This document shows, one piece after another, positions 2,255 to 61,696 of a stretch of 64,000 bases of DNA. Numbering within the stretch: the first letter of the stretch is position 1; every line of letters begins with the position of its first letter. The DNA lies in NCBI GenBank assembly GCA_964434285.1, contig CAYSUJ010000002.1, forward strand, positions 57,913 to 121,912, in the 5' to 3' direction. The stretch comes from an uncultured Candidatus Saccharibacteria bacterium (GTDB lineage Bacteria > Patescibacteriota > Minisyncoccia > Phycocordibacterales > UBA2100). The position numbers and the translations under genes were made by a program. The notes under the pieces are model-generated. The model ran no database searches and had not been told where the DNA came from. It saw nothing but the letters and a program-made list of their open reading frames with translations.

Positions 2255-2496
2255 AGACTGGTTTACTTACGAGAGTGAAAGTAATAATATGCCTCTACAC
2301 AACCAATATTGAGCCGCAAGGCTAGTGCCTAAACCATTTGCTTCGGCGGGTGGCATGGCATGAAATCGTTGAGGATAGAAAACCCGTCATTCAGGGCGTC
2401 CTCAACGTTGCGGAGGGAAACTTCCGTAGGGGCCTAAAAACCCTCCTGGTGGCGGGCTTTGTGTTTGCCACCGGATTACAAACGTAATTCGGATAC

Positions 2497-3084: not shown

Positions 3085-3445
3085 CCTACGGCTGGGGACA
3101 GAGATGTCCTCAGGGAGTTCTGAGATTGGTTGAGGGAAACGAAAAGCTAAAGGATATAGGTTTCCATTATCCTCCGACAATCCGCACCCTGCGGACAATA
3201 TCACCACACAAACTTTCATTGAATAAAAGGCCCTTCATGGTGTATGCTCTCCATACAACTAAATAACCTTCCGGAGGTACCGTAGAGGATCGTTTTTGAA
3301 CCTCGCTTTTTGTCCTCCGAAAGAAGCATTGCTTCCGTACGCGGAGACTTCTTTCGGATTGCAGAAGCGAGTTTTCGTTTTGGCAGTCGGAGCAATCTTC
3401 TCCTTACACATACTAGGGACGGCAATCCGTCCGACCAATGAAGCC

Positions 3446-3895
3446 ATGGATACTTCCACGGTACAAAAGAAGGCGAATACCCAGATATGGGAGCCTCTTT
3501 TTCAGCTTCTCCTCGGAGAGGAGTCCAGCGCCTCCGACAAGGAGCGCATTAGCCGCCTTTCTCAAGAGGCGGCGCAGATTAGCAGCTTTGTAAAGACCGT
3601 CCAGTCATACCCCCACGAATACGAATGGTGGTGGGACAAATTGAGTCCTAGCGAAAGAGTGGTCCTCGGTTTTCTTCTCAGCGAAATCGCTGGCTCGGGA
3701 GAAACGAGGCGTGCAATCACGGCTCACGAGCTGGAATCTGCAACCGACCTAGGACAGCCTGAGATTCGTGAGGCAACCAGACGACTCACGTCCTTGAGAC
3801 TTATAAGGGTGCTACGAGCAACCCCAGGGACGGATGTATACGTCCTGTCGCTTTACGACGAGGACGATGGTGCCTTAACCCCTAGCAAACTATGA
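3446..3895 (+). CDS. hypothetical winged-helix DNA-binding protein (WW-motif paralog 1)
   Basis: Has a YEWWWDKLSPSERVVLGFLL motif followed by a C-terminal wHTH-like segment. ORF track 3296..3895; ATG 3446 (MDTSTVQ) is the more plausible start. Its stop overlaps the next gene start (ATGA at 3892). Confidence 0.35.
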   Translation: MDTSTVQKKANTQIWEPLFQLLLGEESSASDKERISRLSQEAAQISSFVKTVQSYPHEYEWWWDKLSPSERVVLGFLLSEIAGSGETRRAITAHELESATDLGQPEIREATRRLTSLRLIRVLRATPGTDVYVLSLYDEDDGALTPSKL

Positions 3896-4626
3896 GGTTC
3901 AAAATAAAAAATGGTGAATTCACTGGATTCACCGGAGAAGACATGTCGGTCTTCTTCAAATATCCAAGAGTCTTGGAGTTCTGGTGGGGCGGTCTCAGCG
4001 GCAGTGAACACAAGGTCCTTGATTTCATTCTCCGCCAACTCATCGGGTTCCAGAAGGATGCTGATGCCATCTCTCTCGACCAGTTCACGAAAGGCATTGG
4101 GAAAAACAATCGAGGCACTGGACTTAGCGAATCGCAGGTGCGTCGAGCCGTAAAAAACCTGGAACTCAAAGGTTTCATCGAAGTCGAAAGACGTCGGTTT
4201 GGGCCGAGCATATTCAGAATCCGCTTTGCGGAAGGCGTTATCGTAGACGGGCAAGGTAATACCACAACGATTCCACAGAAAGACGTTCGTGATGTCATTG
4301 AACGCTTCCGAACAATCGATTCTGGGAATATCGAAAAAATCCTCAAAGACAAGCGTCAGTTCGCAGCCATGACACGCGTCATGACAAAATACGGACCCCT
4401 AGAGGCAGAGTGGCTCGTATGCGCCCTTCAGTTCACACGAGGAAAGGAAAACGCCCCGAGCATTGCTTCGCCGCTTGAACTCGAGAGCAAGCTACCGAAT
4501 CTAGTCGGATACATCAAAAAGCAGGCGGAGAAGTTTCCTCGCTCTGTGGTGAGCCTAGAACTCGGTGTGAACGTTGTCGGGAAAAAGCACCAAAACGCGA
4601 AACCAAGTCTCGAATTCCTAAATTAG
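3892..4626 (+). CDS. hypothetical winged-helix DNA-binding protein (WW-motif paralog 2), possible element replication/regulatory protein
   Basis: LEFWWGGLSGSEHKVLDFIL parallels the motif in the upstream gene. A wHTH-like stretch (LSESQVRRAVKNLELKGFIEVER) follows. It is translationally coupled to the upstream paralog. Confidence 0.4.
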   Translation: MRFKIKNGEFTGFTGEDMSVFFKYPRVLEFWWGGLSGSEHKVLDFILRQLIGFQKDADAISLDQFTKGIGKNNRGTGLSESQVRRAVKNLELKGFIEVERRRFGPSIFRIRFAEGVIVDGQGNTTTIPQKDVRDVIERFRTIDSGNIEKILKDKRQFAAMTRVMTKYGPLEAEWLVCALQFTRGKENAPSIASPLELESKLPNLVGYIKKQAEKFPRSVVSLELGVNVVGKKHQNAKPSLEFLN

Positions 4627-5087
4627 GTACCACCGGTCATCATGACACCGGGGTGTTCAAAAGTGATACGGAGGGGTATCAAAAAGAACACTCGACTGGT
4701 GTTCATAGTGAAACCCACAATAGAGAATAAATACCAAAAGAGGTATTTACAAGAATGGTTTTCTGGAGAGGAAGAGGTCTGGAAGAGTAAAGAGAATGAC
4801 TCTGCTCATCCCTCCAGAAGACCGCTTGTAAACATTCACTAATGTACAACAGTTGGAACTTGTTATACCTATATTCTAAGCCATATTTTGCAGTTCTCAC
4901 TGCATAATCGGCTTCCAGAAATATATGGATATCGAATCTCTCAAGGACTACTTCATCGCCGACCAGATACAGCGTATCGAATTACTCACACGAGACGAGC
5001 TAGTCCGTGAACTTATCTCAATCAAATCAGCGGAGCTGGAAGCCATGACCCCTCACGACCTTCTGAGGCTCTGCGAGACAAAAAAAT

Positions 5088-6866
5088 ATGGAAACTGACA
5101 CCATTACACCAATCACCGAGGAAACCACACAACCAGAACAAAAACAGAGGCGAGCCGCCTTATATCTGCGCGTCTCGACCGACGAGCAGGCAAAAGAAGG
5201 TTTTAGCTTAGAACTTCAGGAGGAAAAGGGGCGCGGCTACTGCAAGCTCCATGAACACGCTCTGGCAGAGAAACACATTTACAAGGACGACATCTCTGGC
5301 ACGTTTGAAGCTGAAAGGCGCCCAGGTCTAGGTATGCTTTTCGAGGCCGCGAGGAACGGAGAGTTTGACGTTGTTGTCATCTATAAGATTGACCGACTAG
5401 CCCGCAGTCTTCTGGTCCTCAAGAACACCATACACGAACTGGAGAAGCTCGGAATCGGTCTCAAGTCCGTCATGGAACAGTTCGATACGCAAACGCCGAT
5501 AGGACGAACGAACGTAAATATCCTCGGCACCTTCGCTGAATTCGAGAGAGACCAAATCCGGGACCGGACAATGGGAGGGAGAATGCGAGCAATGGAGATG
5601 GGACGATGGGTCGGCATTACTCCATACGGGTATACCAAGGACAAGGAGACACGTAAGCTCGTGGTGAACGAAAAGGAGGCGAGGGTCGTGAGAAAAATAT
5701 ACGGTTGGCTCGTGAACGAACAACTGTCCCTCAGAGAAGTTGAGAGACGCATGAATCGCTTGAAGATACCTGCTCCGTTCTCCTCAAAAATAACGAAGCG
5801 GGAAACGCAGAATTACTGGCACAAGCGGACGATAGGACGCATCTTAACCAACGAAGTATTCACAGGGCGTTTCTGCTATCGCAAGTACAAGCGTCCATTC
5901 AATAATCTGACGAGCATCACCGAATCGAGCAAACTACGACCTCAAAAAGAGTGGATATGCATAGAAACACCCCCGATTATCTCGCCGGAAATGTTCAAGG
6001 CGGCAAAACAGCAACTCCTAAGAAACCGCGAATTCGCAAAGCGGAAACTTAAGAACATGTATCTGTACTCAAAGATAGTCAGATGCGGACGATGTGGATT
6101 CAAGATGTTCGGCGGATTCCAGCCGCCTCGCGGGAAGTGGAACTACCCTGGAGGATACTACTATCACGGCATTTATCGTGAGAAAGACGCCGCAGGAAAA
6201 AGTAAACGCTGTGCGTGGTGTCCGAATTACTCCGAGGCAAGAATGGAGCCGATTTGGGAATGTCTAAGGGATATCTTGAAGAATCCGGCAAACATCATGA
6301 CCCCCCTCGAAAGATATGTACGCAAGGGAGAAGACCCTCATGTAATCACAGGACGTTTAGCTGAGATACACGAGACGTTGGAAAACCTTGGCCAGAAACG
6401 AATCAGAGCCAACGAACTCTACATTGCGAACAAAATAAAGAAAGAAGAGCTCAACAATTACTACCGAGACTACGACAAGGAGGAAAAGATACTGAACGAT
6501 GAGGCCCTGAAGCTCCGTCAGAGTCTTCTCGGGAAGGAAGAAATCGCAGACCAGAAGCGAGCGATAGAGGGGGCATATAAGCGGATACAGACGAAACTGG
6601 ACGAGACCACCCGCAGTGAGAAAGCGAAAATAATTCACATGTTCGTCGAGAGCATCACCCTCCATGCTACGGAGAACTACGCAGAGGTGGTATGCAAGTT
6701 TCCTAGCAACACGGAAACCAGAAATCCCCGTGCAGAGAGGCAAGGTCTAGGTGTGAACGGCACTGTTCCTCTCGTGCTGAGAGTAAACACAATCCCGGAA
6801 GAAGACAGACGAGCGTACATGCTCAAAACAAACCCTGGTATGTACGTCCCGAAGTCCCTGATTTAG
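5088..6866 (+). CDS. large serine recombinase (phage/ICE integrase type)
   Basis: N-terminal resolvase catalytic domain (ALYLRVSTDEQ, IYKIDRLARS), a recombinase domain, and a Cys cluster for a zinc ribbon (CGRCGF...CAWCP) with a coiled-coil C-terminus. 592 aa. Confidence 0.9.
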   Translation: METDTITPITEETTQPEQKQRRAALYLRVSTDEQAKEGFSLELQEEKGRGYCKLHEHALAEKHIYKDDISGTFEAERRPGLGMLFEAARNGEFDVVVIYKIDRLARSLLVLKNTIHELEKLGIGLKSVMEQFDTQTPIGRTNVNILGTFAEFERDQIRDRTMGGRMRAMEMGRWVGITPYGYTKDKETRKLVVNEKEARVVRKIYGWLVNEQLSLREVERRMNRLKIPAPFSSKITKRETQNYWHKRTIGRILTNEVFTGRFCYRKYKRPFNNLTSITESSKLRPQKEWICIETPPIISPEMFKAAKQQLLRNREFAKRKLKNMYLYSKIVRCGRCGFKMFGGFQPPRGKWNYPGGYYYHGIYREKDAAGKSKRCAWCPNYSEARMEPIWECLRDILKNPANIMTPLERYVRKGEDPHVITGRLAEIHETLENLGQKRIRANELYIANKIKKEELNNYYRDYDKEEKILNDEALKLRQSLLGKEEIADQKRAIEGAYKRIQTKLDETTRSEKAKIIHMFVESITLHATENYAEVVCKFPSNTETRNPRAERQGLGVNGTVPLVLRVNTIPEEDRRAYMLKTNPGMYVPKSLI

Positions 6867-48184: not shown

Positions 48185-48269
48185 GGAGGGGTGGCAGAGT
48201 GGTCTATCGCGCTTGTCTTGAAAACAAGAGTCTCGAAAGGGACCGTGAGTTCGAATCTCACCCCCTCCG
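48185..48269 (+). tRNA. tRNA-Ser (anticodon TGA)
   Basis: Acceptor GGAGGGG/CCCCTCC, anticodon loop CTTGAAA, long variable arm (GTCTCGAAAGGGACC), T loop TTCGAAT. It aligns well with the E. coli tRNA-Ser(UGA) architecture. Confidence 0.85.
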
Positions 48270-49895
48270 CATTTTGATTAGTTCAGGGTTAAAAGAAACA
48301 TTTTGTCCCTTGTATAAAGGATTTTTAGAGGTTCTAACCTGCACTAATTCACGTTCTGCCTCTGGCAGATTTTCGAAGATGAATTGGAACGGTTTACGTA
48401 GTTCTACATTGATATTTTGGTCTTTTAGTATGAGGTTCGAACCAAGACAAGCAAAGATAGCTCGTTTTGTTTCTATATCTCCATTCGTAAACCAAGTACT
48501 AGCGTAACGTGCAAAATTGTACGTTCTTTCGCTGAGTTCCACCCACTGTTCCATATCCTTGCTGTGAGCCTCTATATCGCCCTCTAGGAGGTGTTTTTCG
48601 TGCAATAGAGCATTCTTCAAGGTCTTATAATCACTGTCGCTGATAAGCGATCCATCGAGGTTGTCAGGCGATGTGTACTTGATAAGCATTGCGTCGATCT
48701 GCTTTGTGATAGTAAGAACACGCTTCTGCTTCTCAGCAAAAGACTGCTCATAACTTCGAGCTTCATTTTGGCGGATTTCGTGCAAATACTTAATTGCCCA
48801 ATCTCGGAATCGATCAGAAATAGTAAGACCGTGAATTACAGTATCAATCTGTCTACTCAGCTCAGCTAACTCAATCGTTCTTTCAGGGCACTTCTGGTCT
48901 ATTCGCTTTGTACAACGATAGTAAACGTAATAATGCACGTTTCCATTTTTCTGTCGTTTGGTCTTTTCTTCTGCGGTTATAGAAGCACCGCAATGACCGC
49001 ACTTCATCAGCCCAGTAAAAGCAAAACGTCTTGTAAGAGGACGAGGACGTGATCGATTATCACCTAAGAGATTCTGCACTCTCTCAAACTCTTCTTCCGT
49101 AACCATAGGTTTATGCAGACCCTTGTACCAATTCCCACTACCTTTTGGATACTCAAAATATCCGCAGTAAAAGCGGTTGTTGAACATCTTATAGATTGAC
49201 GCTCGACAAAGAGCAGTCCCTGCAAACTTCTTTGTTGTACGGGTCTTAAAGTTCCATTCTTTATTGGCAATTTCTATAATCTGTGGAGGTGTATATCGTC
49301 CTGTAAGCATCATCTGCCACATCTGATTGACCATATCGAATCTTTCAGGATCGGCGACAATGATATTTTCACCTTTCTCTCGAATAACTGTATTAAGATA
49401 GCCAAGCGGAGCACGAGACGGATACCAACCCATTTTCAATTTGGTTTCTAGTCCACGCTTTACGTTTTTACTCAAATCACGAGTGAACTGATCTGCAATT
49501 CCAAAGTCGATATACGATAACAATGCGTTATCTTCTGAAAGGTAAATACGATCGCTTGTGATGATTCGTTTAATTTCTCCACGTTTAAGCAAACCAAGAA
49601 TAATTCCAGCTTCCTCAGGATTTCTTGCAAGACGATCAAGCTTCCAACAGATTATTGCATTGATAGCACCATTTCTGATTTGCTTAATCATCGCATCAAA
49701 CTCCTTTCGTTGATATGGAGTTTCGGCAGATTTTTCTTCGTGAAAAGTCTTCTTGATTTTGAGATTTAACCTTTCAACCGTTTCATTCGCCCACTCTCTT
49801 TGAGAGCCGATACTAAGAATCTGCTTCTCCTTATCTTCGGTACTCTTTCGAGAGTAGTTGCATAGTATTTCATTTTCATTGTTAATTTTTTTCAT
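48258..49895 (-). CDS. large serine recombinase (integrase of the tRNA-Ser island)
   Basis: Resolvase N-terminal domain (YSRKSTEDKEKQ, ICWKLDRLARN), recombinase domain, Cys cluster for a zinc ribbon (CGHCGAS...YYRCTKR) and a coiled-coil C-terminus. Its last ~12 nt overlap the tRNA-Ser 3' end. 545 aa. Confidence 0.9.
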   Translation of the reverse strand: MKKINNENEILCNYSRKSTEDKEKQILSIGSQREWANETVERLNLKIKKTFHEEKSAETPYQRKEFDAMIKQIRNGAINAIICWKLDRLARNPEEAGIILGLLKRGEIKRIITSDRIYLSEDNALLSYIDFGIADQFTRDLSKNVKRGLETKLKMGWYPSRAPLGYLNTVIREKGENIIVADPERFDMVNQMWQMMLTGRYTPPQIIEIANKEWNFKTRTTKKFAGTALCRASIYKMFNNRFYCGYFEYPKGSGNWYKGLHKPMVTEEEFERVQNLLGDNRSRPRPLTRRFAFTGLMKCGHCGASITAEEKTKRQKNGNVHYYVYYRCTKRIDQKCPERTIELAELSRQIDTVIHGLTISDRFRDWAIKYLHEIRQNEARSYEQSFAEKQKRVLTITKQIDAMLIKYTSPDNLDGSLISDSDYKTLKNALLHEKHLLEGDIEAHSKDMEQWVELSERTYNFARYASTWFTNGDIETKRAIFACLGSNLILKDQNINVELRKPFQFIFENLPEAERELVQVRTSKNPLYKGQNVSFNPELIKMRRG

Positions 49896-50295: not shown

Positions 50296-50566
50296 TTGCG
50301 TGTAGGAGTTGCTTCACTTCTTTAATCGCTGAAATGAAGCTCTTGGGTTCGACCTTTGCTCTGCCATACAAAAAATCCTCCACAAGTTCCGCTTTGCCAT
50401 CAGAGTTAGTGAAAGCAAAGTAAACCTGTCGAGGATTAGTCCTGTTTATATGAGACAGCTGAAAGCCATTAGCAATGAGAAAAGCCGTGATATAGAAATC
50501 TTTGGTTGTGAAGCTTTTCGCATTTACATCTTTCATTCTTCGAGCATACGCAAAAAGACCTGCCAA
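50288..50566 (-). CDS. small hypothetical protein (92 aa), unrecognised family
   Basis: TTG start per the ORF track. The pattern FTTKDFYITAFLIANGF is reminiscent of small phage/ICE-associated proteins of unknown function. Confidence 0.3.
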   Translation of the reverse strand: MAGLFAYARRMKDVNAKSFTTKDFYITAFLIANGFQLSHINRTNPRQVYFAFTNSDGKAELVEDFLYGRAKVEPKSFISAIKEVKQLLHAND

Positions 50567-50601
50567 CTATATGACAGGAGTTGATACCACAATCTGTAAG
50601 G

Positions 50602-51366
50602 TTAGAGCTTTCTTAAAGTACCGAGAGCGTCTTTGTATCTCTTACGATAAACAGCTACATCTGCATAGCCAAACCCTCGCTCTTTATCAAGAATGTGAAT
50701 TATTTTCTCAATTTCTAATGCAATCTTATGGTCATTTAATCCTTCTTGAGATAACAACCACACCCTCCGAGCCAGATCACCAATTTTTGAAACCTTTAGC
50801 GGTAGTTTTTCTTTTTTAAGCTGAGTGAGTTTTTTCAGGGCTTTCTCAATATCTCGCTTAGTTGTCCATTCAAATATCTCTACGTATAAACTATTCGGAT
50901 TGATAAGAAACTTATTGATGTCCCTGTCTGCATCGGTATGAGTAATGGAAAAAATTGGATAGTGGCTTATAGAGCTATATTTAGCTCTCATAGGAGCAAT
51001 AATTGTGTCATATACAAATTGCCATACACTCGCTCGATATACTTTTGGAATCTCAAAATCAGCCAGTAAAGTGTCTGTCTCCTGTACGAGATTATGATAC
51101 CTACTCTTCGATTTGTGCTCCCATACGAGAGCTTCGGCAGAATCAGAAAAACCTGCTTCTGGCAATTTATATTTCTTGCGAAGTTGCTTAATCCTAGTTT
51201 GAAAATGAGGGTGGTCAGAAAGAAGTACAAAAAATCTCTCACGACTCTCTATAAACTTTTTATCTGGTGTACCACTGGTACACCGAGACGATACAATTCC
51301 TATATTTTCTTCTAGTTTCTGCTTGAGTATTTGATTTTTATTTTTTCCGTTAGCTCTTTCAGTCAT
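50602..51366 (-). CDS. hypothetical protein (254 aa), unknown function, in the island operon
   Basis: No motif recognised. Sits 5 nt downstream of the DUF2779-like gene. Confidence 0.35.
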   Translation of the reverse strand: MTERANGKNKNQILKQKLEENIGIVSSRCTSGTPDKKFIESRERFFVLLSDHPHFQTRIKQLRKKYKLPEAGFSDSAEALVWEHKSKSRYHNLVQETDTLLADFEIPKVYRASVWQFVYDTIIAPMRAKYSSISHYPIFSITHTDADRDINKFLINPNSLYVEIFEWTTKRDIEKALKKLTQLKKEKLPLKVSKIGDLARRVWLLSQEGLNDHKIALEIEKIIHILDKERGFGYADVAVYRKRYKDALGTLRKL

Positions 51367-51370
51367 AGAT

Positions 51371-52984
51371 TTATTTTTTCACTAGTTCAGAAAAGAACTT
51401 CCACAACACGTACATTGCATAAGTATCGAGTTTACAGTATTCAAGCATTTGTCGTTCCTTTTCTTTCATTTCATCACCGACCAATTCTCCGACAGTGATT
51501 TTTCTATACGCTTCAATAGCATCAGTACCGCTTTGAACACCTAAAACCTTATATGAAAGATGTGGAGCGAGAACGGGTAAAACTTTCTTAATAGACGCTC
51601 TGCCCTCGAAGCCCGGATGTATGTAATGCTGACCGTCAACAATATCCATCAAATCATAAGTACGACTAACAACATCAAGAAAGAAATCTTTATAATCAGG
51701 CAGTAGGTTTGCAAGTTCCTTGTTTCGAGAGTTTTCAAAAGTTTTATACCAAGAGATTACTGTTCCTGAGTTACCAATATGTTTTCGCAGACTTTCTGCA
51801 ATACGCTCTGACGGCTCTCCGTCCAGTATTAGAGACTCGTAATGCTTTGGTTCTGAATCCTTATTTTCAAGTACGTGTAAGGAGTATTGAAATACTATTT
51901 GTTGATACGGACGATACCCGCTATATGGAGGTATTGCGGTGGGATATGTTTCGTAATCAAGAAAGTAAAGAGGAAAAATTAGTGAATCAAGTTCGGCTTT
52001 TAATGACTCAAAATCAACCATTGGCTCTTGAGACTTGTGGACTAGCACTTGGTTCAGCTTTCTAGGTTTACTTTGCTTTGCTGTACCTCTCGCTTCTTTG
52101 GGTTTCAAGCGATCATCAACAGGTACGTCAGCAACCTCTAAGATGCCCTCTGCGAGCAATTCACTCAGGTATTTCTTACTATTACCAATTCTATTGAGAT
52201 CGTGAACGCTATATGCGGGCACGTGAGGGTTTATATAACCAAATGCTGAACAGTGCGAATTACGTCCTTTGTAGTAGCAAGGACAGGGTGCAGACGGTAC
52301 TTCTGTGCTTAATAAGTAAGTATGGGCATAGGACATCTCAGAAATCGCAATCGTTTTAAGAATATCTATAACCTCAGTTTTATCTTCGATAATGAAAAGT
52401 TGATTTGGAGTAAAATCAAGATCGCCACTTCTTACATACGCACGATTAAGTCTTACTAGAAACTTTTGATTTATTGAAACTCCACATTCTTCTGCGACAT
52501 TTACCTGAAAAGCGAGATCGTATTCATATTGAAGCTCTTTCTTTTTGTTGACTCGTTTCGGTTTACCGTCGTCTTCCTCCTCGTCCTCATCTTCGGTTGT
52601 GGACATTTTAATTTCGTAAATATCATACTTTCCAACTGAATCATTCCACTTCAAAACGTCCAGTGCGGCGAGATATTTATCTGTTGCAAAAACAGGTTGA
52701 AAAATGACAGGTGTTCGCTCTGCTATTAGTTTCTTAGTAAGCTCTTGTGCACCCGCACTTCGTCGCTCAACGAGAAATCCATTGGGGAACATTCCACGTG
52801 CCAACTCTTCCACATCATTACCCATTTCTGCTAAAGACTTCTCAAACTCAGACGGTTCAAATCTTGCGTATTCTTCAAGTCGATTTCTCTTAACCCAAAC
52901 ATTATTTGGACATTCTCGATAAAGTATAAAGTCTGTTTTTGTTAAAAGGTTTGTTGCCATACGTTTGTTAGCCGAGAACATCAA
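51371..52984 (-). CDS. predicted nuclease fusion: N-terminal Cas4/RecB-like PD-(D/E)xK Fe-S nuclease + C-terminal DnaQ-like (DEDD) exonuclease-like domain (TM0106/DUF2779-like)
   Basis: N-terminus has LTKTDFILYRECP, then D..EIK (YDIYEIKMS), the RecB-family QxxxY motif (QYEYDLAF) and a C-terminal Cys triad (CPCYYKGRNSHC). The C-terminal domain has an Exo-I-like FLDYETY and YCKLDTYAMYVLW. 537 aa. Confidence 0.55.
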   Translation of the reverse strand: MMFSANKRMATNLLTKTDFILYRECPNNVWVKRNRLEEYARFEPSEFEKSLAEMGNDVEELARGMFPNGFLVERRSAGAQELTKKLIAERTPVIFQPVFATDKYLAALDVLKWNDSVGKYDIYEIKMSTTEDEDEEEDDGKPKRVNKKKELQYEYDLAFQVNVAEECGVSINQKFLVRLNRAYVRSGDLDFTPNQLFIIEDKTEVIDILKTIAISEMSYAHTYLLSTEVPSAPCPCYYKGRNSHCSAFGYINPHVPAYSVHDLNRIGNSKKYLSELLAEGILEVADVPVDDRLKPKEARGTAKQSKPRKLNQVLVHKSQEPMVDFESLKAELDSLIFPLYFLDYETYPTAIPPYSGYRPYQQIVFQYSLHVLENKDSEPKHYESLILDGEPSERIAESLRKHIGNSGTVISWYKTFENSRNKELANLLPDYKDFFLDVVSRTYDLMDIVDGQHYIHPGFEGRASIKKVLPVLAPHLSYKVLGVQSGTDAIEAYRKITVGELVGDEMKEKERQMLEYCKLDTYAMYVLWKFFSELVKK

Positions 52985-54314
52985 CGATCTTATCTATCGT
53001 CAAAATCCCTGTCTCAAGAAATAGGTCTTCGAGTTGTGTGTGGTCGATGTCGGCGTTTGATAATTTTTTCCCAACTACATAAAGTAAATCCTTAGCTCGA
53101 ACCAAAACAACAGGAACACGAGTGACTCTGTAAATATCCTTTAGTGAGCTATCAAGTGATGTTCTATCGTTAAACTCTGACGAGACGATAAGAAAAGATA
53201 CTTTGTCGACTCTTTGTCTTTGGAGTTCTCTTTGTTTATTTTTAATATATTCAACAATCTCTCTATCCTGTGTACCGATCGTATACTCTTTTTCACGAGC
53301 TTTTGCATCGTACACGACGGCGTAATAACCCGAATGCCCATCAGAAGAAATTGCGACACCATCTGGCTCTCTACCTCTTCCTTGACCTAATTCAGTCGCA
53401 TTAAAACCTAGAATTGTAAAAACATAACGGAGTTTTGTTTCAAACGCCTTTTCAGGTTTAATGTTTCTTTTTATTGACCATTCAGTTTCTTGATTCAATG
53501 CAAGTTTTTCAAGATCGGCAACAATAGAAGGAATCCAACTTTCATCGTCCACTTTAATTGCCTGAGTCGATTTACTTTGATTAGGAGTTGTCTTTATGTT
53601 TTCTTCTATAACATCTGTATGTTTTTTGGTGAACTGCTTCCAAAGAACGTGCTCTACAAACCATACAGGATGACGATCATTTACATTTGCTTTTTCAATA
53701 TAAAAAGTACGGATTGCAGAATATATTTCTACAAAGTATTTATATTCATCTCCAGTTGTCTCTTGTGTTTTGAAGTCAAAACCAAGATTTTCCAGCACAT
53801 TTTTTGCTGACCCATAAAAAACTGGGAGAGTTTCAGGACTTTGAACTTCCCAAAAATAAGACAACATAAAAGACAGATTCACTCTCGGAATACTTTTAGG
53901 ATTGTCGGATTTTGTCTTGAGCTGAGTTAGGTATTCTGCGAGATTATTTATCTTTACTACCGCTTCATCTAGTGTTTGAGGTAAAGAGAGGGCTTCTTTT
54001 AAGTGATCATCTTTTTCAGAATCCTCAATGTTTTTTACAAACTGATTCAACTGCATTTGACCACTAAAGCCACTAAATCCCCAATATGGATATTTACGAC
54101 TCATCAAATCACTTTTCTCCTTAAACTCAGTAGAAGATAGAGCACCTTTCAGAAACTCATTAACAATATCTTTAATTTCAGCGATGGCTTCAACTCTCTT
54201 ATCATCAAAAGATGCAAACTCTATATCAACACCATTATCGGTAACAGTAGAGGATTTTTGAAACTCCTCTAGGTATACTCGCAATTCGTTTTCTTGTTCT
54301 TGTGTAAGATTCAT
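52968..54314 (-). CDS. protein with unknown N-terminal domain and a C-terminal Mrr-type PD-(D/E)xK restriction-endonuclease-like domain
   Basis: C-terminus FETKLRYVFTILGFNATELGQGRGREPDGVAISSDGHSGYYAVVYDAKAREKEY matches the Mrr_cat pattern (GDGGIDG...QAK). Start is likely ATG 54314 (MNLTQEQ) rather than 54422, which overlaps hsdR. It overlaps the downstream nuclease gene by 17 nt. Confidence 0.5.
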   Translation of the reverse strand: MNLTQEQENELRVYLEEFQKSSTVTDNGVDIEFASFDDKRVEAIAEIKDIVNEFLKGALSSTEFKEKSDLMSRKYPYWGFSGFSGQMQLNQFVKNIEDSEKDDHLKEALSLPQTLDEAVVKINNLAEYLTQLKTKSDNPKSIPRVNLSFMLSYFWEVQSPETLPVFYGSAKNVLENLGFDFKTQETTGDEYKYFVEIYSAIRTFYIEKANVNDRHPVWFVEHVLWKQFTKKHTDVIEENIKTTPNQSKSTQAIKVDDESWIPSIVADLEKLALNQETEWSIKRNIKPEKAFETKLRYVFTILGFNATELGQGRGREPDGVAISSDGHSGYYAVVYDAKAREKEYTIGTQDREIVEYIKNKQRELQRQRVDKVSFLIVSSEFNDRTSLDSSLKDIYRVTRVPVVLVRAKDLLYVVGKKLSNADIDHTQLEDLFLETGILTIDKIVDVLG

Positions 54315-54327
54315 AAATCCTAATTTG

Positions 54328-56781
54328 TTATCTAATAATTGAATACACTTTCTCTCGAATCGACCGCACAAATCCAAACAATCCCTCAGGATATGTTGAC
54401 TGTATAGCTTCCTTTTTAGCATTCATATTTGGCAACAGGAATGTCTGGGCTGAAAGATTTTCTTCTCCACTGGTTTTATATTTCTCCATAATGTCTCTGA
54501 TCGCTTCACCAACCACTTTTCCGTACTGGTCGATATTCTGTGCATTCTCTCGCATAAAGTGTTTTACACGATCCTCACGAGTGATAAGTGGTGCATTAAA
54601 GGCAATATGAGCAATCACATCAAAAGCATCGATGTCTTCGAGATTCTCAATAGACTTAATGAGTCCGATATTCACTCGTTTGTCTTCAAGGTCTGTAATC
54701 AACTGCTCACGCTTATCTGAATCGAGCCACAACTCTCTTAGTTCGGTTGTCGAATGTACAGTTTGCACAATCTTGTCTCCTGAGTATTTTCGATACTCCG
54801 CATACGACAATTTTGAGCCATCAAACTCAACTTCAATTTCCTCGTCGATTGTTACAGTAATTCCCTTAACCGTAATCTTCTTTGGTGCAGACCTCCACGG
54901 CTTCAAGCGGAACTCATAAGGCATCTCTTCGTCCGATGTATGCGGAGCAAGTTTTTTGCCTAACTTCTTGTAATTAGCGTGCTCGATGGTGATACGCACT
55001 TCATCATTTGACGGCAACCCAAATATCTTAAAGAGTCCGTTCTCGTCTGTTTTTCCTGCTTTCTCCCAACGCCCAAGCTTTATTTTTATGTTGGCATTTG
55101 CAACAGGTTCTTCTTTTCTATCGTCAACAACAACGCCCATAAGAAGTTTATCGAAAGGTGGCAACGGTTCTTCTGGTGGCTCTGGTGGCTCAGGTTTTTC
55201 AGTTGGAATATCCCACTCATCAATGAGGCGGGTAGCGTTAGTGAAATCGAGAATCCTAAAGAAACCCTTACCCTCGAACAAGCGTGATCCACGTCCTATA
55301 ATCTGCTTGAAAAGCACCCTAGAGGCGATTGGACGCATAAATACGATGTTCTGTACGTGCGGAATATCAACGCCAGTAGAGAGCAAATCAACAGTGGTGG
55401 CGATGACAGGCATAGCTCGCTCTTTGTCTCGGAACTTGGTCAGGTCGTCTTTATCTTCTGCTACGACACGAGAGGCATATTCTTCTGAGTTTTTAATCTC
55501 ATTAAGCTTATCTTTTACTGCTTGTGCGTGTGCCATATCGACACAAAAAATAATCGTCTTTCCATACGGATTCGTCTTATCAAGAACTTCTATTACCTTA
55601 CGAGAAAGCAATTCAATCTGTTGTGGAATCGTAACAGCTTTTTCGTATTCAGGTGGTTCGTAAAAATCTTTTACATCTTCGGGATTTATTTCATCGTCGT
55701 AAATTACTTCTTCGGCGGCTGAAACGTTCAAACCCTCTCGGTAAAGATTAGTTGTGATTTTGTATATCTTATAGGGCACAAGATAGCCGTCCTCGATTGC
55801 CTGACCGAGCGAGTATTCAAAGACTGGTTCTCCAAAGTATTCGTACACGTCGATGTTATCCTCACGCTTTGGAGTAGCGGTCATACCGAAGTTTTGAGCT
55901 GTACTGAAATGTTCAAGAATCAAACCCCAATCTCCGTATCGGGAACGATGACACTCGTCAATTACAATCAAATCAAAGAAGTCCTGAGGAATCTGCTTGT
56001 AAAACTCATTCGTGAAAAGTGTTTGGTACGTAGCAAAATAAATATCCTTGTTTTTATTAAAAGTTCCACCCTCAATTTTGCACCGAGCGTCGCCAAAAGG
56101 TTCATAGTCTCGACTGTATGCGTCATCACGTAAGATAACTCGATCACAAAGAAATAGCACTCGGCTAACAGTCTTTGACTTGTAGAGCTTCCAAATAATT
56201 TGAAACGATGTAAATGTTTTTCCTGTACCAGTTGCCATTGTTAGAAGTGTTGCGTGCTTCTTGCTTGCAATACTCTCAATAGAGTTCTTGATTGCAGTTT
56301 CCTGATATGCACGAGGTCGGCGAGCACCAGTGAGGTATAGCGGGTACATTAAAGCGTCCTGCTTTACTTCAACTAATCCTTTCCATTCAACATACGCTTC
56401 ATACATCTGCTCAGGAGAAAGAAAGTCTGTTACTTCCTCAGTTTTCATTGTTCGTCGATCGTGCAAATAGGTAGTATGTCCATTTGAAATATATGCAAAA
56501 GGTACATCAAGACGCTTAGCATAGTCTTGTGCTTGGCTCAGGTGCTTGAGAGGGTCTTCATCTTCTGCTTTTGCCTCAAGTACACCAATGACAACGTTCT
56601 TATACATCACTACATAGTCAGCAAACTTAGCAGTAGGTAAACGCTTGAAATCCTCACCCTCGACGAAGAAGCGATCATCTGAGATCGGATACTGGCGGAG
56701 GAGATATTCTTCTTTCCAACCGCTTTCTAGTATTTTTGGGTCGATGAGCTTGACCCTTGTATCATCTTCTGAGTAAGGCAT
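54328..56781 (-). CDS. hsdR: Type I restriction enzyme R subunit (HsdR)
   Basis: N-terminal HsdR nuclease region (MPYSEDDTRVKLIDPKILESGW), helicase motif I LLTMATGTGKT, motif II VIDECHRS, and motifs III-VI. 817 aa. Confidence 0.85.
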   Translation of the reverse strand: MPYSEDDTRVKLIDPKILESGWKEEYLLRQYPISDDRFFVEGEDFKRLPTAKFADYVVMYKNVVIGVLEAKAEDEDPLKHLSQAQDYAKRLDVPFAYISNGHTTYLHDRRTMKTEEVTDFLSPEQMYEAYVEWKGLVEVKQDALMYPLYLTGARRPRAYQETAIKNSIESIASKKHATLLTMATGTGKTFTSFQIIWKLYKSKTVSRVLFLCDRVILRDDAYSRDYEPFGDARCKIEGGTFNKNKDIYFATYQTLFTNEFYKQIPQDFFDLIVIDECHRSRYGDWGLILEHFSTAQNFGMTATPKREDNIDVYEYFGEPVFEYSLGQAIEDGYLVPYKIYKITTNLYREGLNVSAAEEVIYDDEINPEDVKDFYEPPEYEKAVTIPQQIELLSRKVIEVLDKTNPYGKTIIFCVDMAHAQAVKDKLNEIKNSEEYASRVVAEDKDDLTKFRDKERAMPVIATTVDLLSTGVDIPHVQNIVFMRPIASRVLFKQIIGRGSRLFEGKGFFRILDFTNATRLIDEWDIPTEKPEPPEPPEEPLPPFDKLLMGVVVDDRKEEPVANANIKIKLGRWEKAGKTDENGLFKIFGLPSNDEVRITIEHANYKKLGKKLAPHTSDEEMPYEFRLKPWRSAPKKITVKGITVTIDEEIEVEFDGSKLSYAEYRKYSGDKIVQTVHSTTELRELWLDSDKREQLITDLEDKRVNIGLIKSIENLEDIDAFDVIAHIAFNAPLITREDRVKHFMRENAQNIDQYGKVVGEAIRDIMEKYKTSGEENLSAQTFLLPNMNAKKEAIQSTYPEGLFGFVRSIREKVYSIIR

Positions 56782-56785
56782 ATAT

Positions 56786-58450
56786 TTATACTTGTAAAAT
56801 CTTTTGATCCCACTTATTTTTCTTTATAAAAGAAATGGTGCGATAGGTTTCGGAATCTTGAAATCTATTCGGCTTCCACTCCTGCAACTTCTGACGTATC
56901 ACGACATCGTCAGAAGTCTTCTCGTCCTCAATAATTTTGCAAACTGTCGCCAACAATTCAATTGAATGACTATCAGACGAGAAATAGTGAGGCATCATTT
57001 TGTCTAAGTAGTCTGTCATTTGCTGTTTAAGCGTATCTTCTACCTGATTTAAGATATAGCTACCGCTTACTCCTAAAGCAAGCACTTCCATACCCTTAAC
57101 ACCTTTTCTCATAAAAAACTGCTTCCGAGAAGATAGTCCATCTTCAACGGCACGCTTAATTTCTGAGCTGTAAGGTCCAAACGATTGCTGTGTAAAAGAA
57201 ACACCTAAAGGGGTTTTGAAAACTGTCTGTGCGATGTATAAAACTTTGGCAACAACCATCTCTCCTCTCTGAAAACGCCTAACTATAAGTGAAATTGCTT
57301 GCTGTACAGGAGAAACTACCGTACTAGCAGTTTGAACAGGTGCATTTTGTAATCTTTGCAACATTGAGAATAAAAATCTGTTTTTCACCTCAAGAGCATT
57401 CGTTTCAACCCTCTCTATAATGTTTTTAAGCTCAATAATATATTGGATTTTCTTAACAATTCTTTTTTGAGTCAGCAGATCAGGCAAGAGGATTTTTTCT
57501 TTCAAGAAAATATCCTCTTTGAATCTCTTTCTGTTTGTTGCTCCTTGACTAGCTATCTGAAATAGCTTCACAAAAGCAGGTGTACTTAGTATTTCATTTA
57601 AGAAAAGAGGGTCGATTGATTTTTCTTGTATGTTATAGGATAGAAAATCTGCGGTCGTTATAGCTCCCTCACAATCCTGCGGAATGATACCAAAAGCACC
57701 GTTTCGTGCATCGATTTTTGAAATAACGAATTGACCCGCTTTAACTACATATTGTTTCTTTGTACCAATATCAGAACCGAGAACTTTGTCTCTTAATTGA
57801 ACACCATTTGAATACATTCTGATTGTTATTCTTTTGTACAAAGTGTCATCAGCAACCTGATGTGTCTGATTATTTCGTATTAACAGATCGGAAATAGTAA
57901 ACTCTTTTAACTCATAGCGTGCTAAATCTCCAACAACCATACGACGCAATCCCGCAATATCTTGCGAGGCATTTTCTGACACTGAAAGTAATCTGTTTGT
58001 AACGTCCTGAACTTTTTCTCCTTGTGATGCAATTAAATCTTGCTTATCAATAGGTAGGAAAGGTATCTCAAAGTTTCCAAAATCTCCCTTGTTTATAGAC
58101 TTTTTAGCTGCTCCCTTTGCAAGATTCGCAACAATATCCTTTGAAAGTGCAGTAAGAAGAGCGTAATAAAACTTGAGATTTATTTTATCAGTATATTCTT
58201 TTTGTGGAGTGAGAATAAAACAGAGATCGCTAGCGATAAACTTACCTTCGACAAAGTGAACTCTACCTAACGACCCACTGGCTGCTACGGCAATTACCAA
58301 AGCGGTACAGTCGTGAGAGTAGCTATTGTGATTTTTCCATTCTTTGGAGGCAGTAATAAAAGTAAACTCACCAGACTTGTTTTTGGTGCTTTGTAATGTG
58401 CCTTTCTCAATAACGAAAAGCTCTTTAATTTTCTTGGTTTCAATCTTCAT
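56786..58450 (-). CDS. hsdS: Type I restriction enzyme S subunit (HsdS) with an extra ~210-aa C-terminal domain
   Basis: Two target-recognition-domain halves with conserved helical spacers (FEIPFLPIDKQDLIASQGEKVQDV and ILLPDLLTQKRIVKKIQYIIELKNI), followed by about 210 additional residues. Typical HsdS is about 400-450 aa; this one is 554 aa. Confidence 0.7.
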   Translation of the reverse strand: MKIETKKIKELFVIEKGTLQSTKNKSGEFTFITASKEWKNHNSYSHDCTALVIAVAASGSLGRVHFVEGKFIASDLCFILTPQKEYTDKINLKFYYALLTALSKDIVANLAKGAAKKSINKGDFGNFEIPFLPIDKQDLIASQGEKVQDVTNRLLSVSENASQDIAGLRRMVVGDLARYELKEFTISDLLIRNNQTHQVADDTLYKRITIRMYSNGVQLRDKVLGSDIGTKKQYVVKAGQFVISKIDARNGAFGIIPQDCEGAITTADFLSYNIQEKSIDPLFLNEILSTPAFVKLFQIASQGATNRKRFKEDIFLKEKILLPDLLTQKRIVKKIQYIIELKNIIERVETNALEVKNRFLFSMLQRLQNAPVQTASTVVSPVQQAISLIVRRFQRGEMVVAKVLYIAQTVFKTPLGVSFTQQSFGPYSSEIKRAVEDGLSSRKQFFMRKGVKGMEVLALGVSGSYILNQVEDTLKQQMTDYLDKMMPHYFSSDSHSIELLATVCKIIEDEKTSDDVVIRQKLQEWKPNRFQDSETYRTISFIKKNKWDQKILQV

Positions 58451-59897
58451 ATAAAATCTTTTCCAAATCAGCAGATATTTTTTCTGCGTCTTTTAAGGAA
58501 GTTTTGATTGAGTGCAACAACTCCTTTTCTGTTTTATCAGCGTCTTCGTTAGCAATAGAGTTTGTATTCTTGACCGAAAGAGAGTATCCATTTTCTTTAA
58601 TGGCTTCTATCGGAACAACCCAACTATGGTCAGATTTTGCACGCTTTTTCCATAGCGTAAAAATATCTTTCAAATCTTCCTCCTGAATTGGCTGAGTTCT
58701 TGTGAAGTTGCCTTTGAGTTCACCGAACCACACTTCTTTTGTCGATCCTGTCTTCTCAAAAAAGATTAAGCTAGTCTTCACTGTTGCACCCATTTGAGCA
58801 AAAGCACCTTGTGGAAGTTGAATAACTGAATGAACATTAAACTTTTCCAAAAGTTCTTGGCGTATGCGAGCCATTACTCCACCACCGAACAACACATTAC
58901 CCTCAGGCAAAATAACACCGCAACGACCGCCATTTTTTAGTCGCTTCATAATGTATTGGAGTGCTAATGCCTCAGTCGCTCCAACAGCTATTGGGTAGTT
59001 ACTCTGAACGGCTTTGGTTTCTTCTGCTCCAAAAGGAGGGTTGGTTAAAATAACGTCCATTTTTGCACTCTCAGAAATGTTGTGTACATCTTCTGAGAAA
59101 GTATTTACACGGGTTAAATTAGGAACAAGAATATGGTGCAAAATGAGGTTCATTGTTCCAATTAAGTAAGGTAAGGGCTTCTTTTCTTGTCCGTAAAAAG
59201 TTTTAGTTTGCAAAGTTTTCCAAGTGCGAATATCTTTTGATGAGTTTTCGTATAGATAATCAAAGCTTTCAACAAGAAAACCACCCGATCCTACGAATGG
59301 GTCGAAAATGGTGTCGCCGATTTTTGGATCGACCATTTTTATCATCAACTTAATAATCGGGCGAGGAGTATAGAACTCTCCTGACCAACCACCCTCGCTT
59401 CCCATAGCTTGCAAGATTTCCTCGTATACCTGAGAAAGCAGGTGAGTATCTTGGAAATGATGCTTTTCAATTTGATCGAGAATCTCTACTACTTCAAGCA
59501 GGGTATACGGCGAATACACTTTGTTGTGAAGCTCACGAAATATCTCTCCGATTTTATCTTTTTCTCGTGTCCCTTTAAGTGATTTAAGATATGGAAAAAG
59601 TTTCTTATTTACAAAATGAATCAACTCTTCTTTGTCTTTCCAATCTTTTTTAGCCCAAGCTGACCATCGGTACTCACTATCGATAACAGGTTTATATTTC
59701 TTACCCTCTGCTTCATCAAGGTCTTTAAGTTGATCCTCAACACCTTCAAAGATTCTTAGGAAAAGAAGCCAAGAAAACTGCTCGATATAATCTTTTGCAC
59801 CTACACCATCATCACGACGCAAAATATCGCAGACCTTTTTGATGTCCGCTTTCGTAAGTCCTGTCTTTGTTGGTTTTTGTTTACGTTTCTTGGTCAT
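58440..59897 (-). CDS. hsdM: Type I restriction-modification N6-adenine DNA methyltransferase (HsdM)
   Basis: HsdM N-terminal domain, SAM-binding DPFVGSGGFL, catalytic LTNPPFG. 485 aa. Overlaps hsdS by 11 nt. Confidence 0.9.
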   Translation of the reverse strand: MTKKRKQKPTKTGLTKADIKKVCDILRRDDGVGAKDYIEQFSWLLFLRIFEGVEDQLKDLDEAEGKKYKPVIDSEYRWSAWAKKDWKDKEELIHFVNKKLFPYLKSLKGTREKDKIGEIFRELHNKVYSPYTLLEVVEILDQIEKHHFQDTHLLSQVYEEILQAMGSEGGWSGEFYTPRPIIKLMIKMVDPKIGDTIFDPFVGSGGFLVESFDYLYENSSKDIRTWKTLQTKTFYGQEKKPLPYLIGTMNLILHHILVPNLTRVNTFSEDVHNISESAKMDVILTNPPFGAEETKAVQSNYPIAVGATEALALQYIMKRLKNGGRCGVILPEGNVLFGGGVMARIRQELLEKFNVHSVIQLPQGAFAQMGATVKTSLIFFEKTGSTKEVWFGELKGNFTRTQPIQEEDLKDIFTLWKKRAKSDHSWVVPIEAIKENGYSLSVKNTNSIANEDADKTEKELLHSIKTSLKDAEKISADLEKILYED

Positions 59898-60100
59898 TGG
59901 TTTTTCTTTGAAAGTTTCTTTGATTTCGACTCGACATTTGTATTATCGGCAAGAAACTTTTTGAGATCGCTTTCGCTGATCCTCCAATAACCGATTTTGG
60001 TAGCTCGCAGTTTACCAGAGTGAATATAGCGAAAGACAGAACGATCGCTGACTCTCAGAATACCTGCAACTTCTTTCAAGCTGTGTAGCTTTTCGGTCAT
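59894..60100 (-). CDS. excisionase/AlpA/MerR-like helix-turn-helix protein (possible Xis or R-M controller)
   Basis: HTH LKEVAGILRVSDRSVFRYIHSGKLRATKIGYWRISESDL. Its stop overlaps the hsdM start (ATGA). ORF track is 59894..60217; MTEKLHS (60100) is the likelier start. Confidence 0.5.
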   Translation of the reverse strand: MTEKLHSLKEVAGILRVSDRSVFRYIHSGKLRATKIGYWRISESDLKKFLADNTNVESKSKKLSKKNQ

Positions 60101-60390
60101 ATAATTGGTATTTACATCATACCTCGGATCGTGTACTTGTGTCAAAATGTGGCAAGGTGATATTTGTGTAAAAGTATTCACGTTTTTGAATGTAATGTAA
60201 TTAGGATTATGTAACATTGACGCTATTTTTTCGGCTCATTTTTCATATCCAAAAAGATCGTTTTGCCGTTCTCATCGATTCTAATTTTTCCTTCTGCAAG
60301 TAGTCGCCTATGAATCCCTCGAAGCACCTCTCCGAGTTCAGAGATGCTCTTTATTTCCGCATCAGTAAAAATGTGTTTCTTCTTTTTCAT

Positions 60391-61323
60391 TTAAGCTACG
60401 TTCATTCCCTCAAAACACTCTGCGACTTTGATTGCTTTCTCTCCAATATCGACCTCGTCATCGTATACAATCAGCATTTCAAGATTCTTGTGCCGACTGA
60501 ACTTCCGTACGTCTCGAACATCAAAGCGTTTTAAGAGTGTAGTAATGAAATAGTGGCGAAAACCGTGCACAGTCTTGTCGATTCCTAGCTCCTCAAACAA
60601 CTCTTTCATCTCTCGCTTGATTGTCATTGTCGTTATCCTCTCGCTCTTACGATTTCCCAGTCCTTTGAATACTGCACCTGACGATACTTTATTTATCTTG
60701 AGATGAGATCGGAGGGCTTTTACTGTTTCTGGTAGTAGGTATATGGATTCCTTGTCATCTCGTCCTTTCCCTTGAACGGAAGCTTTCTTATTCACAAGCG
60801 ACAAATCATCAATATCAAGGCGAATAATCTCTATCTGTCGCAGTCCTTGAAACGCTAGAAGACAAAAAAGTGCTTTGAGTCTGGCGTATTTTGCTGTCGA
60901 GGGTAGATTATGCACTTTCGCTACCAACGTCTCTATTTCTGCTTGATTTAAGCCCTCTAACTTGTGTCTATTGCTTTGATTAAAAGCTTTGATGTTTTGG
61001 GTAATATCTGTCGGGATCAGTCCTCTGCGATTCAACTCCTTGAGAAAAATGCGAGCCGTAGCGAGATATTTATTCTTCGTCGCTACGGCAAAGTCTGATC
61101 GTTCTCCAAGATGTCGTTTGAACTCTAGGAACGTGTTGTGATTGAAAGCGGTATTTTGTACGAACGTGAGAAAAAGTCCTATTCTGCTTTTATATTCCTG
61201 TCTTGTGCTCAGGTTCACGTCGAGTAGGTCGAATATCTGCTTTGCCTTTTCCTCAAATCCCTCAGTTGCGAAGACCGATTGATTTTGCGGTAGCAGATTA
61301 TTTGTCATAGCAGATATGCTCAA
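60391..61323 (-). CDS. tyrosine recombinase / phage-type integrase
   Basis: N-terminal SAM-like core-binding domain. The C-terminal catalytic region has HGFRHYFITTL and a tyrosine in NLEMLIVYDDE. 310 aa. Confidence 0.8.
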   Translation of the reverse strand: MSISAMTNNLLPQNQSVFATEGFEEKAKQIFDLLDVNLSTRQEYKSRIGLFLTFVQNTAFNHNTFLEFKRHLGERSDFAVATKNKYLATARIFLKELNRRGLIPTDITQNIKAFNQSNRHKLEGLNQAEIETLVAKVHNLPSTAKYARLKALFCLLAFQGLRQIEIIRLDIDDLSLVNKKASVQGKGRDDKESIYLLPETVKALRSHLKINKVSSGAVFKGLGNRKSERITTMTIKREMKELFEELGIDKTVHGFRHYFITTLLKRFDVRDVRKFSRHKNLEMLIVYDDEVDIGEKAIKVAECFEGMNVA

Positions 61324-61696
61324 CAGCTAGACCTCTTTGAATGAATGACGGCTCTAGCATTTCGTGTCGATGACACTTTTTATAATCTCCCTCCGAGCAC
61401 ATCACACACATTCTTTCTCCTCCATTATTCTCTGCAATAACACAGATTTCATCTATCGTGTCCTCGTAATCTACATTCTCTCCTTTACCGCCCAAGTTAT
61501 TACCTCTCCACCGATACTCGATTCCTGCTTCTGCCATAGACTCTCGCAGGGCTTTCTCGTTGTACTGAGGTTGAAACCGTGAGCGTGGGATCGAACGAAT
61601 GTCGATTAAAACCTTTATATTGTTGTCTTTGAGTTTTTGTAAAAACTCAGTGATTGGCTTGGTGCTGTGTCCAATCGTGAATATGGTTGCTTTCAT
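61298..61696 (-). CDS. DUF488-family protein
   Basis: IFTIGHS...VLIDIRSIPRSRFQPQYN...AGIEY...LGG matches the DUF488 pattern from memory. 132 aa. Confidence 0.5.
   Translation of the reverse strand: MKATIFTIGHSTKPITEFLQKLKDNNIKVLIDIRSIPRSRFQPQYNEKALRESMAEAGIEYRWRGNNLGGKGENVDYEDTIDEICVIAENNGGERMCVMCSEGDYKKCHRHEMLEPSFIQRGLAVEHICYDK

Follow-up and report, generated by a model that had tools for sequence, protein, structure and literature searches.

In a 64,000-nucleotide (nt) stretch of contig CAYSUJ010000002.1, which we call the window, two adjacent minus-strand genes at positions 51,371 to 54,314 encode predicted nucleases. We name them A and B. They lie at the 3' end of a Type I restriction-modification (R-M) operon on an integrative island of a Patescibacteria-like genome. 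A sequence-only reading of the region had taken the two open reading frames (ORFs), whose presence and predicted nuclease character we confirm, for a coupled two-gene module. We find instead that A and B are separate cargo genes and not a conserved pair. The explanation that we favour, and hold to be probable though well short of certain, is that the modular island carries a Type I R-M operon to which two nuclease genes, each independent of the other, have been added: A, which would be a Type IV-like restriction enzyme, and B, which would process DNA ends. The direct observations concern the domain identities of the two proteins, the conservation of their residues, their independent distribution and the fusion partners of their domains. 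The two genes and their parts (in amino acids, aa) are the following.

52968..54314, minus strand: gene A, whole (448 aa), ATG at 54314
53619..54314, minus strand: gene A, N-terminal helical domain (aa 1-232), predicted reader of DNA or modified bases, not in Pfam
52968..53540, minus strand: gene A, C-terminal FokI-type PD-(D/E)xK cleavage domain (aa 259-448), with D318, D336 and K338
51371..52960 (or to 52984), minus strand: gene B, whole, DUF2779 (PF11074)
51968..52960, minus strand: gene B, N-terminal half, predicted Cas4/AddB-like PD-(D/E)xK nuclease with 1+3 cysteines (from residue conservation and published HHpred)
51371..51967, minus strand: gene B, C-terminal DUF2779 domain, DEDDy 3'-5' exonuclease-like RNase H fold (PF11074, expectation value (E) 1.9e-37)

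Distribution of the two nuclease genes

We scanned 185,579 species genomes with a profile and retrieved 26 loci with a relative of A, in Patescibacteria, Omnitrophota, Verrucomicrobiota, Bacteroidota, Elusimicrobiota and Bdellovibrio. None of these 26 genome loci has a DUF2779 gene within 10 kb of the A relative. The census of B comprised 84 loci (80 from metagenomes, scanned with an alignment, and 4 others). A was present at only one of them (L027), which carries the same hsdR-A-B block as the window. A sister island (L111) resembles that of the window in hsdR (91% identity), in A (74%), in the 254-aa gene that follows B in the window (p254, 75%) and in the serine recombinase (87%). In this island B is absent and p254 starts 5 nt after A. 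The two census counts and the sister island together show that A and B are separate cargo. The sequence-only reading had itself named the lack of a conserved neighbourhood of the pair in other genomes as a ground for refutation, and the pair is not recurrent.

The proposed coupling also rested on a 17-nt overlap between the genes. This overlap needs a TTG start for B, and the homologs of B start at the ATG at 52960. The junction is thus more likely TAA-CAAACGT-ATG, with a 7-nt spacer, and what stands of the claim is the tight packing of the two genes. At another locus (L002), a cassette of a helix-turn-helix (HTH) gene, hsdMSR and A is followed by an unrelated gene. The 789-aa protein encoded at this equivalent of the position of B (L002:11357-13726, Adlerbacteria) has no match in Pfam or PADLOC.

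Domains and neighbourhoods of A and B

Gene A starts at the ATG at 54314, 13 nt past the hsdR stop and preceded by AGGA. Among the matches listed, all of the homologs (about 120) have 430-460 aa and align from that methionine. We rejected a start giving 484 aa, which would overlap hsdR and is at odds with this alignment. The model of the protein has three parts: the helical domain (aa 1-232), a disordered linker (234-258) and a FokI-type nuclease. The latter matches PF09254 (FokI_cleav_dom; 33.8 bits for a cut-off of 25, E 2.9e-8), which is present on every full-length A homolog listed. In the motif GREPDG...YDAKA, residues P317, D318, D336 and K338 are invariant in 34 sequences and A337 nearly so. 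The fold of the domain is similar to that of the FokI catalytic domain, and its top structural matches are FokI-like enzymes. The earlier description of a PD-(D/E)xK nuclease behind an N-terminal domain that could not be placed was therefore correct, but its Mrr-type label was not: Pfam at E<=0.01 gives only FokI_cleav_dom, and the structural matches are FokI-like. The same cleavage domain (57% identity) occurs behind a different N-terminal domain in two other proteins (P0114 and P0110). The protein has no match in PADLOC, PHROGs or NCBIfam, and its single-sequence and profile searches against PDB sequences gave nothing significant. The cleavage domain (PF09254) is thus common to A and FokI, a Type IIS enzyme. 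The recognition domain of A is however unrelated to that of FokI, A apparently has no conserved cognate methyltransferase, and its predicted reader is found on Type IV enzymes.

This last point concerns the N-terminal domain of A, which has no match in Pfam, PDB sequences, PHROGs or NCBIfam. An exhaustive profile search for it returned 598 cluster representatives (~600 clusters at 50% identity). Among the 40 long representatives, 28 carry AAA_5, four GmrSD_N, and one each EVE, HNH and Mrr_N. In one protein (P0119), the domain (43% identity, E 4e-70) stands ahead of GmrSD_N and HNH. In a 705-aa protein (at L024), it stands (E 6e-30) ahead of a true McrB GTPase, which matches residues 162-444 of E. 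coli McrB (E 9e-96) and is followed by the gene for McrC (E 8e-65). Hence, the N-terminal domain of A occurs where the modified-base reader sits in true McrB, with McrC adjoining, and in GmrSD_N+HNH proteins. This position is the strongest argument for regarding A as a Type IV fusion of reader and nuclease. A most likely represents an uncharacterised family of modification-dependent (Type IV-like) restriction endonucleases, with a reader not previously described. It differs from McrBC and GmrSD in that it lacks a GTPase motor and DUF262, and has a FokI-type nuclease as effector within a single polypeptide. It also differs from MspJI and AspBHI, whose reader for 5-methylcytosine and 5-hydroxymethylcytosine is an SRA-like beta-fold, whereas the predicted reader of A is all-helical.

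A distant copy of the domain (22.5% identity) is found on a plasmid of Natronosalvus halobius (NZ_CP099998.1, 164548-167588), on a protein annotated as 'AAA family ATPase'. A gene for a 447-aa hypothetical protein follows 2 nt after the ATPase gene, and the two are probably a McrBC-like pair. The match to the domain begins ~200 nt upstream of the annotated start, which may have been placed too far downstream.

In the 26 loci, A usually closes a run of defence genes that all point the same way. Type I hsdM/hsdR-like genes lie upstream of it in about 10-12 of them, and its other neighbours include AbiEi/AbiEii, a PHP-AAA_21 ATPase, Schlafen/AlbA_2, a deaminase and C5 methyltransferases. Many loci have no methyltransferase adjacent to A, which is the pattern that a Type IV enzyme would show. 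We infer that A cuts modified DNA. It would do so as a stand-alone restriction endonuclease, in which a helical reader is joined by the disordered linker to the cleavage domain. By analogy with FokI, double-strand cleavage close to the site of binding should require dimerisation of this domain. The sensor could have an inactivated glycosylase-like fold, like that of the END nucleases discussed below.

B belongs to DUF2779, since it matches PF11074 over the full profile (1-126) with 128.8 bits for a cut-off of 23.3. In 33 homologs, the nuclease residues D109, E124 and K126 (motif E124-I-K126) and Q160, the exonuclease residues D343 and E345 (motif D343-Y-E345), D444, Y516 and D520, and the cysteines C234, C236 and C245 are invariant, and C25 is nearly invariant. 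These results agree with the earlier description of B as a fusion of a Cas4-like nuclease and a DEDD exonuclease in the DUF2779 family. The Cas4-like assignment of the N-terminal half derives from this conservation and from the HHpred analysis published for MMSYN1_0389 (PMC13621843). When we compared B by hhalign with a small alignment of Pfam-positive Cas4-like neighbours, only the D..ExK segment aligned (probability 1%). Searches against PDB sequences, with the single sequence or a profile, gave nothing significant, and those against PADLOC, PHROGs and NCBIfam gave only a weak match to UU173_fam (51 bits for a cut-off of 225).

This architecture is not new. Within the RNase H-like superfamily, DUF2779 has been assigned to the exonuclease clade (PMC3985635), and the combination of a Cas4-like PD-(D/E)xK nuclease with a DEDDh/y exonuclease was already predicted for the family (PMC3985635; PMC13621843). 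One of its members, MMSYN1_0389, is quasi-essential in the minimal Mycoplasma JCVI-syn3.0 (PMC13621843). It shares with B the D..ExK and the DEDD and tyrosine residues, but has two of the four Fe-S cysteines that B retains (PMC13621843). It is also encoded in a minimal core genome, whereas B is on a mobile defence island.

The neighbours of B suggest a link to DNA motors. A large co-directional helicase gene lies just upstream of B, either adjoining it or separated from it by one or two genes, in 24 of the 62 loci that have at least 1.5 kb of sequence upstream. Such neighbour frequencies are biased, since the 80 metagenome loci comprise the nearest relatives of our B. Spacers to the preceding gene range from -38 to +59 nt in these loci. 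Most of the helicases (19/24) are of superfamily 1 (SF1; AAA_11/AAA_12) with an MTES_1575/DUF559-like nuclease and match the PADLOC models PDC-S37 (E 1e-67 to 2e-61), Hhe and MkoA. Two others are SNF2 proteins of the DrmD/BrxH type and three are Type I HsdR, among them those of two independent hsdS-x-hsdR-DUF2779 arrays (L044 and L093). Nearly all of the closest relatives of B (64-80% identity) are in the helicase class. Several of the helicase arrays adjoin serine recombinases and HTH or WYL regulators, and a serine recombinase is found within 6 kb of B at eight loci. Other neighbours of B are rpoD/dnaG, thioredoxin, a Cas4-like gene and an RNase_H_2 exonuclease.

In a group of Patescibacteria loci (L031-L047, L074, L079, L083, L099 and L110), the DUF2779 gene comes immediately after that of an SF1 helicase of 1170-1820 aa; at L038, for example, the helicase spans 462-5273 and DUF2779 5245-6861. 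The SF1 helicase and the predicted DUF2779 double nuclease look like a conserved pair, of which PADLOC makes a system of one gene.

The candidate defence genes Hhe and PDC-S37 of PADLOC thus match the usual upstream partner of the closest relatives of B. PADLOC counts them as single genes and has no model for DUF2779. The window itself has neither an Hhe/PDC-S37-like SF1 helicase nor a second copy of DUF2779. Here A is immediately upstream of B, and the nearest motor is HsdR, two genes upstream. In this island HsdR is the only candidate motor for B. We infer a role for B in processing DNA ends on behalf of a translocase. It has no reader or motor of its own and would combine a Cas4/AddB-like Fe-S nuclease with a DEDDy 3'-5' exonuclease; most likely it trims or degrades DNA ends made or exposed by motors, the sole one of the operon being HsdR. 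B is a member of a known domain family with a new, testable link to DNA motors.

Alternative explanations

Some of our observations weigh against the reading of A and B as independent add-ons with these functions, and lend weight to alternatives. The hsdR-A-B block moved as one unit at least once. It is 97-99.6% identical between the island of the window and that of L027, which sits at a tRNA-Asn and differs in its serine recombinase (24% identity), in the target-recognition domains of hsdS and in an unrelated 251-aa gene that replaces p254. The presence of this block on different backbones speaks for the rival reading that A, as a sensor-nuclease, and B, as a nuclease-exonuclease, form an obligate, translationally coupled and new two-gene anti-phage system. 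The two genes are also same-strand neighbours (with the 7-nt spacer or the 17-nt overlap), and both encode predicted nucleases on a defence island. We nonetheless consider such a system highly improbable, given the near-complete separation of A and B in the two censuses, the direct succession of A and p254 in the sister island, and the recurrent neighbours of A, which differ from those of B. At one locus (L008:2973-5065), two C5 cytosine methyltransferase genes stand directly upstream of the A homolog. This neighbourhood, the only such locus, looks like Type IIS R-M rather than Type IV. If A were Type IIS-like, it would cut unmodified DNA, its N-terminal domain would read a sequence and a neighbouring methyltransferase would protect the host. 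The cleavage domain and overall layout of A do match those of FokI, and an N6-adenine methyltransferase (hsdM) lies upstream at many loci. We find this unlikely, because no single methyltransferase family is conserved beside A and many loci (L005, L009, L013, L014 and L018) have no methyltransferase there. Moreover, the specificity of HsdM is set by HsdS, which varies while the N-terminal domain of A stays conserved, and this domain is common to McrB and GmrSD, both Type IV chassis. There is also little reason to expect that A is an accessory of the Type I enzyme, such as an additional cleavage unit that HsdR or HsdM would recruit, even if it directly follows hsdR in the window and at three other loci (L002, L027 and L111) and Type I-like genes precede it as often as mentioned above. 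Type I genes are missing from the surroundings of A at over half of the loci, the adjoining Type I families differ (mostly 23-29% identity to the hsdR/hsdM of the window), and A carries its own predicted reader. Type IV genes are common beside Type I operons, as in the hsd-mrr-mcrBC region of E. coli K-12.

For B, a housekeeping role in repair is a rival to be taken seriously. Conservation of DUF2779 is very strong (68% identity in the mean column), with more than 3400 matches at 60-80% identity across Patescibacteria, and B is near rpoD and dnaG in ~10 loci. These traits, and the quasi-essential member in JCVI-syn3.0 (PMC13621843), fit housekeeping repair as well as defence. B could thus be a nuclease for DNA repair or end resection that stands in for RecBCD/AddAB in reduced genomes and has no role in defence. 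In its favour, too, a transposon mutant of M. bovis was recovered in a cell-culture-survival screen, and none of 50,697 phage records gave a match to B. It sits less well with the closest relatives of B, which are mostly encoded directly behind Hhe/PDC-S37-like, SNF2 or HsdR proteins, with the several such arrays that lie beside serine recombinases and HTH/WYL regulators like mobile defence-type cargo, and with the location of the window copy inside a low-GC island. We see a housekeeping role as possible but somewhat doubtful, and retain end processing for a motor as the better account of B.

The nature of the sensor of A is a separate matter. A 2025 preprint describes END nucleases, in which an inactivated EndoIII/Ogg sensor is joined with PLD, with McrB or, in END-Mag, with a NucS-like PD-DExK nuclease; these proteins restrict phages with hypermodified DNA (PMC12191111). 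The resemblance of the N-terminal domain of A to HhH-GPD glycosylases is weak, and three results count against it. In an hmmscan of 14 N-terminal domains against Pfam, no glycosylase family appeared at E<=10. The profile of the domain found nothing among PDB sequences. Its best Foldseek match in the PDB is MagIII, with a non-significant E of 0.35. No aspartate is invariant in the domain across the aligned homologs. The END nucleases differ from A, whose N-terminal domain has no sequence-profile signal for any glycosylase family and no significant Foldseek match. The order of domains in END-Mag is apparently reversed with respect to A: the name 'PD-DExK-iEndoIII' suggests an N-terminal nuclease, which the preprint does not state (PMC12191111). 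The nucleases differ as well, since that of A is FokI-like and theirs are NucS-like or PLD. A may be a FokI-type analogue of the END nucleases. We put forward only tentatively, as a conjecture less likely to hold than to fail, a joint proposition: that the N-terminal domain is a previously undescribed sensor of modified bases which descends from an HhH-GPD glycosylase that lost its activity and, separately, that DUF2779 proteins are end-degrading partners of Hhe/PDC-S37-like, SNF2 and HsdR defence genes in Patescibacteria.

The island and its operon

The G+C content of the window falls from ~0.52 to ~0.39 between ~48.2 kb and 63.4 kb. This low-GC block begins at a tRNA-Ser(tga) gene (48185-48270, plus strand), and its genes all run along the minus strand, in the 5'->3' order DUF488, tyrosine integrase, HTH, hsdM, hsdS, hsdR, A, B, p254 and serine recombinase. 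The drop in G+C, the tRNA gene and the two recombinases agree with the mobile-island setting given in the sequence-only reading. Its remark that the genes belong to no named defence system also holds, as PADLOC has no match for A, B or p254. The remaining features of the block are listed below.

61298..61696, minus strand: DUF488 gene, island backbone (PADLOC PDC-M45B, E 3.7e-30)
60391..61323, minus strand: tyrosine integrase, island backbone
60116..60145, minus strand: promoter-like site TTGACA-18-TATGAT (11/12) upstream of the HTH gene, consensus match only
59894..60097, minus strand: small HTH regulator, ~67 aa from Met41 of a 107-aa ORF, with a counterpart in L027
58440..59897, minus strand: HsdM, Type I methyltransferase (N6_Mtase E 2.4e-62, HsdM_N; PADLOC MTase_I E 1.9e-140)
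56786..58450, minus strand: HsdS, Type I specificity subunit, 554 aa (Methylase_S in two stretches; PADLOC Specificity_I)
54328..56781, minus strand: HsdR, Type I restriction subunit (ResIII, EcoEI_R_C, HSDR_N; PADLOC REase_I E 2.2e-133)
50602..51366, minus strand: p254, 254-aa gene, island backbone, no family match
50559..50578, minus strand: terminator-like hairpin directly 3' of p254, consensus match only
48258..49895, minus strand: large serine recombinase (family match), abuts tRNA-Ser and marks the island end

The genes hsdM, hsdS and hsdR are all present and in the same direction, as a Type I R-M system requires. A and B would have joined this HTH-hsdM-hsdS-hsdR operon as separate cargo. 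From the HTH gene through p254, intergenic spacers range from -11 to +13 nt, and the promoter-like site at 60145-60116 is a possible start of an HTH-hsdM-hsdS-hsdR-A-B-p254 transcription unit; the number of such consensus sites in the region is not above that in shuffled sequence. The start of the HTH gene follows its counterpart in L027, a 68-aa HTH_17 gene at the equivalent position (98.7% identity over residues 33-107).

Two subunits of the Type I enzyme have unusual stretches. HsdS has a C-terminal extension of ~170 aa (roughly aa 380-554) past both Methylase_S domains, without family match, which is 61% identical in the L027 island even though the target-recognition domains differ. HsdR has, at aa 548-614, where the helicase core gives way to EcoEI_R_C, a weak match to a CarboxypepD_reg-like beta-sandwich (E 3.5e-6, under the gathering score), which is unusual in HsdR. 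The DUF488 gene overlaps that of the tyrosine integrase by 26 nt, and its match, PDC-M45B, is a PADLOC candidate defence model. Across the island, no convincing att-like direct repeat matching the end of tRNA-Ser turned up, as expected for a serine recombinase. Elsewhere in the window, a second and weak serine-recombinase-like match (5163-6179, plus strand; 20% identity, E 7e-7) lies in a region of strong AT skew (4-8 kb) and may mark another mobile element.

The 254-aa gene is a backbone gene of an island family and not a partner of B. It has no family match in four libraries (PADLOC, PHROGs and NCBIfam among them), and just 15 homologs were found. These adjoin DUF488, a tyrosine integrase or a serine recombinase, with variable cargo. 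At two loci (L112 and L114), the gene stands between DUF488/tyrosine integrase and a recombinase, with cargo quite different from that of the window. We rejected it as a partner of B, given its absence from all 84 B loci and its place directly after A in the sister island (L111). The pair of DUF488 and tyrosine integrase recurs in L027, L112 and L114. The backbone of the family consists of DUF488, tyrosine integrase, variable cargo, a p254-like gene and a serine recombinase, inserted at differing tRNA genes: Ser in the window and Asn in L027, with Thr and Gln tRNA genes near L112. The cargo may be nothing at all, an SNase and a 430-aa gene without known family, or Type I R-M and A, with or without B.

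Setting aside the A-B pair as a system removes a false lead and leaves two genes of separate interest. The N-terminal domain of A spans at least three Type IV-type architectures, and identifying its ligand would add a new modification-dependent specificity. Such enzymes are useful for mapping DNA modifications and are relevant to phage therapy, as hypermodified phages are common. If the tentative link to glycosylases were true, the END nuclease principle would gain in A a new branch of FokI type, which restricts hypermodified phages. B is a widespread predicted double nuclease whose recurrent place behind large DNA motors gives a testable hypothesis on its partner. The island family that carries both genes in the window illustrates how defence cargo is reshuffled between tRNA-targeting elements in Patescibacteria.

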